A stretch of 64,000 nt of DNA from assembly GCF_054482595.1 (NCBI RefSeq), contig NZ_CM137008.1. One strand, 5' to 3'. Under the pieces are notes generated by a model that ran no database searches, had not been told where the DNA came from, and was given only the letters and a program-made list of their open reading frames with translations. A program made the position numbers and the translations under genes. Below are positions 37,170-37,400 of this stretch, in pieces; within the stretch, counting starts at the first letter, position 1; every line of letters starts with the position of its first letter.

Positions 37170-37400
37170 GTTACGGTGCACCACGCCTGACTGAAGAACT
37201 GCGTGCTCAGGGTTACCACTTCAACGTAAAACCGTGGCAGGAGGTCCGGACTGAAAAAACTGCTCAGGACATCATCGGCAGGGAACGCACTGCTAGTCTG
37301 TAAACTGAACCGACTGGGGCGCAGTATGTGGCATCTTGTCGTGCTGTTGGAGGAGCTGTGCGAACGTGGTATTAACTTTCGTGCTCTGGCCCAATCTATA
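37170..37400 (+). pseudogene. pinH: serine recombinase (Pin/Hin invertase-type) fragment
   Basis: plus-frame translation ...[38 protein letters not shown] resembles the resolvase catalytic-domain core; no complete ORF. Confidence 0.5.

Follow-up and report, generated by a model that had tools for sequence, protein, structure and literature searches.

A pinH-type relic upstream of ypjA in Escherichia coli: an internal fragment of a Hin/Gin/Pin-family DNA invertase joined to a piece of an IS3-like transposase gene

The window, by which we mean the whole 64-kb stretch of DNA analysed here, comes from an E. coli chromosome, and a 901-bp query taken at the locus has 100% identical counterparts in several E. 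coli chromosomes, that of strain XH990 among them. In XH990 the genes follow the order gabD, lhgO, glaH, an alpha-amylase-family gene, tRNA-Ile, a gene for a DUF5507 protein, an incomplete recombinase, a 39-aa hypothetical protein and ypjA/ehaD, and the RefSeq/PGAP annotation of that genome labels the part corresponding to 37233-37400 of the window as 'recombinase family protein, incomplete, missing N-terminus and C-terminus'. The features on which the following discussion depends, all on the plus strand, are these:

34593-34668 (+): ileY tRNA (CAT anticodon) on the left edge of a low-GC segment (annotation, Rfam scan, GC profile).
35419-36873 (+): ypjCB, DUF5507+DUF5508 (Pfam DUF5507 E 8e-85, DUF5508 E 2e-138, annotation).
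37152-37238 (+): internal fragment of an IS3-like transposase gene, about 87 bp from the beginning of orfB (HTH_21 region), in which 1 bp is deleted (blastn, Pfam).
37230-37469 (+): equivalent of K-12 pinH, a stop-to-stop open frame holding the relic (K-12 annotation and alignment).
37233-37421 (+): internal fragment of a Hin/Gin/Pin-family DNA invertase gene (tblastn, Pfam, DNA alignment to intact pinE and Fels-2 genes).
37808-42382 (+): ypjA/ehaD, adhesin-like autotransporter gene (RefSeq annotation of XH990, ORF list).

A stretch of low GC content (29-43%, about 31.4-37.0 kb) contains ileY and ypjCB, and the relic sits at its GC-richer edge (48%). In the window ypjCB is a single intact gene of 484 aa, with DUF5507 in its N-terminal and DUF5508 in its C-terminal part, whereas K-12 has the gene in two pieces, ypjC and ypjB, the alignment with K-12 breaking within the gene at about 36045-36149; a weak Pfam match to CTD4 of ABC-3C systems (E 1e-3, under the cut-off) is also seen in its product. 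Further to the left, 31781-34033 on the minus strand is an intact ORF for a 750-aa alpha-amylase-family glycosyl hydrolase, the K-12 counterpart of which, ygaQ, is annotated as a pseudogene. Just upstream of ypjA, a 39-aa ORF at 37624-37743 on the plus strand (MPHSYAEYHHFIMMSLMSGEHNTLALSLQDESPGLVPVG) is annotated as hypothetical protein WP_001120794.1 in XH990, MS6198 and S1-CAM-04-C, and this ORF may encode a leader peptide, or its annotation may be an artefact. On the other side of ypjA, an island extends over 42693-49945 as far as ssrA (tmRNA, 49583-49945, minus strand). It contains a gene for an AbaSI-family restriction endonuclease (42693-43574), an AAA ATPase and HNH endonuclease pair (about 45670-48203) that could be a defence module, decayed P4-like genes (part of a primase gene, and a psu interrupted by a stop) and, directly next to ssrA, the pseudogene of an integrase. 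The window and XH990 are 99.9-100% identical over 27900-49620, and because the match ends at about 49620, just past ssrA, the strain of the window must differ from XH990 beyond ssrA.

In K-12 MG1655, a pseudogene named pinH (b2648, NC_000913.3 2783065-2783304) is annotated between ypjA (b2647) and ypjB/ypjC. The window is collinear with K-12 over 28430-42560 (about 14 kb) at about 95.7% identity, and around the relic the alignment reaches 98% nucleotide identity over 940 bp with one 1-bp indel, by which K-12 pinH is mapped onto 37230-37469. Given the conserved gene order together with the 98% nucleotide identity, the relic is the orthologue of pinH, and as such already catalogued and named.

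The relationship of the fragment to serine recombinases is supported by several independent searches. Pfam PF00239 (Resolvase) matches at E 1.2e-9 with 38.9 bits (curated cut-off 23.3) over profile positions 48-103 of 145, and the Gin structures 3uj3 and 4m6f match at E 1.7e-12 over residues 39-95. When intact PinE was compared with the whole 64-kb window by tblastn, the sole significant match was at 37242-37400 (E 7e-19, PinE residues 42-94 of 184), the runner-up having an E value of 0.06, and the invertase of Fels-2 matched 37233-37400 at E 2e-18. An earlier note, made from the sequence of this DNA, had recognised a serine-recombinase core here from a peptide which sits at 37302-37400 in the plus frame starting at 37101, and the Pfam, Gin and PinE matches all bear out that recognition.

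At the DNA level the anatomy of the fragment can be described rather exactly. Homology to the intact pinE and Fels-2 genes begins at about 37239, codon ~41 (codons ~39/41 at the left end), and the first ~120 nt of the invertase gene are missing. The robust core is 37242-37400; the invertase frame is kept as far as codon ~94 (37400), where a 4-bp deletion and a change of frame occur, and beyond this point homology reaches the CAATGGGG motif at about 37421 (codon ~102) and is then lost, the last part being probably weak, frameshifted DNA of invertase origin. What survives is thus codons ~41-102, about one third of a gene of ~185 codons. The N-terminal catalytic segment with the nucleophilic serine (residue ~9-10) is absent, homology starting only at residue ~39-42 and the DNA upstream being IS3-derived, and for residues 103-185, with the E-helix and the C-terminal helix-turn-helix, no match is found near the locus. 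Moreover, a complete ORF with a start codon is absent, as a stop lies directly upstream of the frame and the frame changes after codon ~94, which agrees with the earlier statement that start codon and complete catalytic domain are lacking; the open frames in the relic are one of 79 codons from stop to stop and an ATG ORF of 47 codons at 37326-37469. Without the nucleophilic serine, the E-helix and the DNA-binding domain the remnant is incapable of catalysing recombination. The 5' part of the recombinase gene is also the place where Hin/Gin/Pin/Cin invertases carry the Fis-bound recombinational enhancer.

The DNA immediately to the left has another origin. The interval 37170-37400 had been proposed as one invertase fragment, and this holds for 37233/37242-37400 but not for the ~70 nt of 37170-37238, which are IS3-like transposase sequence; both this adjoining piece and the annotated identity with K-12 pinH had been missed. 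In a blastn search with 37090-37245, positions 63-149 of the query are 88.6% identical to annotated IS3 transposase genes (E 1e-21), and in an IS3 copy the matching piece is situated 466-553 nt into the orfAB CDS, while the upstream frame matches Pfam HTH_21 at E 1.2e-4, under the gathering score. Only 37152-37238 matches IS3, and the ends of the element with their terminal inverted repeats, as well as an intact transposase, are absent. The two pieces have one orientation and are directly joined within 37233-37241. Since both of them are internal fragments, the present structure would require at least two or three deletion events rather than a simple insertion.

In prophages of the P2, Mu and e14 types, Hin/Gin/Pin-type invertases invert segments of tail-fibre genes, and the presence of such a fragment upstream of an autotransporter gene, a position which our coordinates confirm (388-408 bp upstream of ypjA), had been taken to suggest that the neighbourhood once contained an inversion switch, implicitly one linked to the autotransporter. 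According to this explanation the relic would be the leftover of a dedicated phase-variation switch, consisting of an invertase and an invertible promoter, that controlled ypjA. In its favour are only the adjacency and the equal orientation of the two, the relic ending ~390 bp upstream of ypjA, and a perfect 14-nt inverted repeat that brackets the relic and the start of ypjA. The crossover sites of intact systems are recognisable. We employed a degenerate pattern, TCNNAAACCNNGGTTTNNGA, which was checked on two intact control loci. In the AF46 prophage it finds a pair of sites at 1947 and 3795, the second of them 58-77 bp upstream of pinE, and in Fels-2 a pair at 67 and 2801, the second ~58 bp upstream of the invertase gene. 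Over the 64-kb window, the same pattern gives only two matches, each with 3 mismatches, at 9090 and 61404, versus 2.76 expected by chance, and not a single match within 27 kb of the relic; paired inverted crossover sites of ~26 bp flanking an invertible segment beside the relic are therefore not found with this validated pattern. The position where the proximal site would be expected, ~60 bp upstream of the start codon, belongs to the part replaced by the IS3 scrap.

A generic search for inverted repeats over 34-44 kb likewise gave only short or imperfect pairs at about the level of chance, as judged by our own rough estimates of the chance expectation, and unlike hix or gix. One candidate is a 26-nt pair at 34203-34228 and 35337-35362, 81% complementary, 1108 nt apart and flanking ileY, of which about one is expected per 10 kb, and another is the perfect 14-nt pair mentioned above, at 36364-36377 and 37952-37965 (CGTTCATCTACTTT and AAAGTAGATGAACG), of which ~0.2 are expected per 10 kb; neither has the AAACC..GGTTT core, and both were rejected. 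As for the 14-nt pair, its arms are both inside coding sequence, one in ypjCB and the other in the 5' part of ypjA, and are not hix/gix-like. The recombination sites that the earlier note had recommended to look for in the flanking DNA thus turned up neither by pattern nor by repeat search.

The genes around intact invertases point in the same direction. In the AF46 prophage and in Fels-2, and in e14 too, the invertase gene adjoins inverted tail-fibre and tail-fibre-assembly genes, and all close intact relatives that we examined sit beside prophage tail-fibre genes, the closest of them all serving tail-fibre segments. When the tail-fibre, tail-fibre-assembly and downstream proteins of two intact invertase loci were compared with the window by tblastn, nothing significant was obtained, and a blastn search of the whole ypjCB-ypjA intergenic region against the phage collection gave homology confined to the invertase core, 37242-37382. 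Besides, the E. coli genomes among the top matches listed are collinear across the region. From the surviving sequence the former existence of a nearby switch cannot be demonstrated, and the suggestion of an autotransporter-linked one finds no backing in crossover sites, in repeats above the level of chance or in tail-fibre remnants; we consider a dedicated switch of ypjA improbable. As the close intact relatives all adjoin prophage tail-fibre genes, any switch that has been lost was most likely, by analogy with them, a prophage tail-fibre segment since deleted and not a regulator of the autotransporter.

We now turn to the distribution and the variation of the relic. Of 5426 complete E. coli genomes, 3008 have the invertase part at a coverage of at least 80%, and the identity of this part to the window ranges from 99.5% in K-12 through 95.1% in MS6198 and 89.6% in E400634 to 88.5% in S1-CAM-04-C. 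These four alleles have in common the left boundary of the IS3 piece, the junction, the 4-bp deletion and the flanks, and because such divergent alleles share their boundaries, the structure of the relic is older than the split between the E. coli lineages that have it. An exact-match scan for the junction among 100,044 species-representative genomes, which diverged copies can escape, found two contigs and no Escherichia relative. The two, NZ_JAHZMP010000086.1 (in an assembly labelled Terrisporobacter mayombei DSM 6539) and DEQI01000374.1 (in one labelled Planococcaceae bacterium UBA3370), are collinear with the E. coli locus and 98% and 93% identical to it, respectively, and were set aside as contamination or mis-binning.

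Where synonymous differences exist, pN/pS among the alleles of the relic is 0.48-1.9, that is about 1, versus 0-0.04 for intact invertases over the same 53 codons. MS6198 differs from the window and K-12 by 8-9 replacements and by zero synonymous changes, the allele of E400634 has an in-frame TGA, and in the allele of the window several residues invariant among the aligned intact invertases are replaced (RPG to RSG, GD to GN, KLDRLG to KLNRLG). Such a pattern marks the relic as a pseudogene that decays neutrally under relaxed selection. The reduced-genome strain DGF-298, which is viable, also has a 33.8-kb deletion that takes in the locus (PMC10652928), from which it follows that the relic is dispensable.

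It is against this background that a second explanation should be viewed, namely that the relic has been co-opted, either as a small peptide, for instance the 47-aa product of the ATG ORF described above, or as regulatory DNA or RNA for ypjA. Its wide occurrence in E. coli, the identical boundaries across divergent lineages and a frame that is open in most alleles could be read in this way, but common descent alone predicts shared boundaries, and neither the pN/pS values with the in-frame stop of one allele nor the deletion in a viable strain would be expected of a retained function. Moreover, promoter-like sites number 3 versus 2.3 expected and are all on the minus strand, a terminator scan found none, and an Rfam scan of 34-38.5 kb matches only the tRNA. 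We judge co-option to be improbable. A more specific proposal, that the IS3-invertase scrap is part of the ypjA/ehaD control region or encodes a short peptide of the invertase dimerisation region interfering with resident Pin-family invertases, is a speculation of very slight probability.

The assignment to a subfamily is also clear, and with it the claim that the fragment is of Pin type can be upheld. The amino-acid identity to the relic is 71% for PinE of e14 (K-12 b1158) as well as for PinE of strain AF46, 70% for the Fels-2 invertase and 36% for PinR and PinQ; for Gin we take it to be 57%, residues 39-95 of the Gin sequence used being confirmed by the structure match. In tblastn searches against plasmids and phages the best intact matches, at 70-75% identity, are annotated hin, pinE or DNA invertase, while the remaining top matches carry a generic annotation or none, and the nearest intact gene found at the DNA level is a pinE, with 87.2% nucleotide identity over 37248-37388. 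That the fragment came instead from a transposon or plasmid resolvase of the Tn3/gamma-delta type, and would thus be uninformative on inversion, is scarcely credible, for although PF00239 spans resolvases and invertases alike and an IS fragment adjoins the relic, the fragment scores 50.6 bits with Gin (E 1.7e-12) versus 21.8 bits with gamma-delta resolvase (E 2e-3), it is closest to Pin and Fels-2 invertases in protein and to an intact pinE in DNA, and the specifically annotated top plasmid and phage matches are all of the invertase kind. On these comparisons the relic is assigned to the Hin/Gin/Pin (Din) invertase subfamily.

Altogether we regard it as very likely that pinH is an inert leftover of a gene for a small serine DNA invertase, fused to an IS3-like piece. 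As for its history, an ancestral prophage, or a remnant of one, with an invertase may once have occupied the low-GC DNA that separates ileY from ypjA. Into this invertase-bearing DNA, or beside it, an IS3-like element would then have inserted, and later deletions would have taken the rest of the IS, the 5' end of the invertase gene together with the crossover site upstream of it, the 3' half of that gene and the invertible segment. Neutral drift of the remnant began before the split of the E. coli lineages in which it is found. In this scenario the origin from a prophage is suggested by the location of the intact relatives only, no phage gene remnant adjoining the relic, and which came first, the IS3 insertion or the deletions, is likewise a conjecture. 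It is plausible that older mobile DNA in this hot spot left behind ypjCB, the IS3 scrap, the invertase relic and also ypjA.

The overall significance of the relic is small, as it is a pseudogene long annotated in K-12 and ordinary genomic debris. What the present analysis adds to the known pinH is its exact anatomy, with an IS3 scrap fused to invertase codons ~41-102, an architecture older than the divergence of the lineages carrying it and drifting neutrally, and the finding that no inversion switch remains beside ypjA. The relic can serve to mark a segment between ileY and ssrA that was acquired horizontally long ago, and it also gives reason for caution, in that a recombinase fragment should not be taken as evidence for phase variation of a neighbouring adhesin.

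Compared with known systems, the relic derives from the Pin/Gin/Hin family, and it fails the functional features tested at the sequence level, namely the catalytic serine, the DNA-binding domain, an intact ORF and crossover sites. With PinE of e14 (b1158) and the Fels-2 invertase (STM2702) it shares 70-71% amino-acid identity over residues ~41-94 and motifs such as ERGINFR; unlike it, their genes are complete (184-185 codons), under strong purifying selection, and adjacent to invertible tail-fibre segments with recognisable crossover sites. Gin of phage Mu differs in having the Ser9 nucleophile region, the E-helix and the DNA-binding domain. With IS3 the likeness is limited to 87 bp of the start of orfB, and the relic copy is an internal scrap with no ends and with a 1-bp deletion. 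At the ssrA site, the window has a different occupant from the CP4-57 of K-12. A literature search on pinH returned mostly noise from an unrelated word, and apart from the deletion list of DGF-298 it yielded a collision of names: the 'PinH' of O157:H7 is an intact 22-kDa invertase of prophage CP-933H detected by proteomics (PMC3936929), and is a different gene from the K-12 pseudogene. By far the closest is K-12 pinH itself, in the common gene order gabD-lhgO-glaH-ygaQ-ileY-ypjCB-relic-ypjA, the invertase part of which is identical to the window at 182 of 183 nt, with equal boundaries and equal frame and with a single amino acid changed, L in the window to V in K-12.
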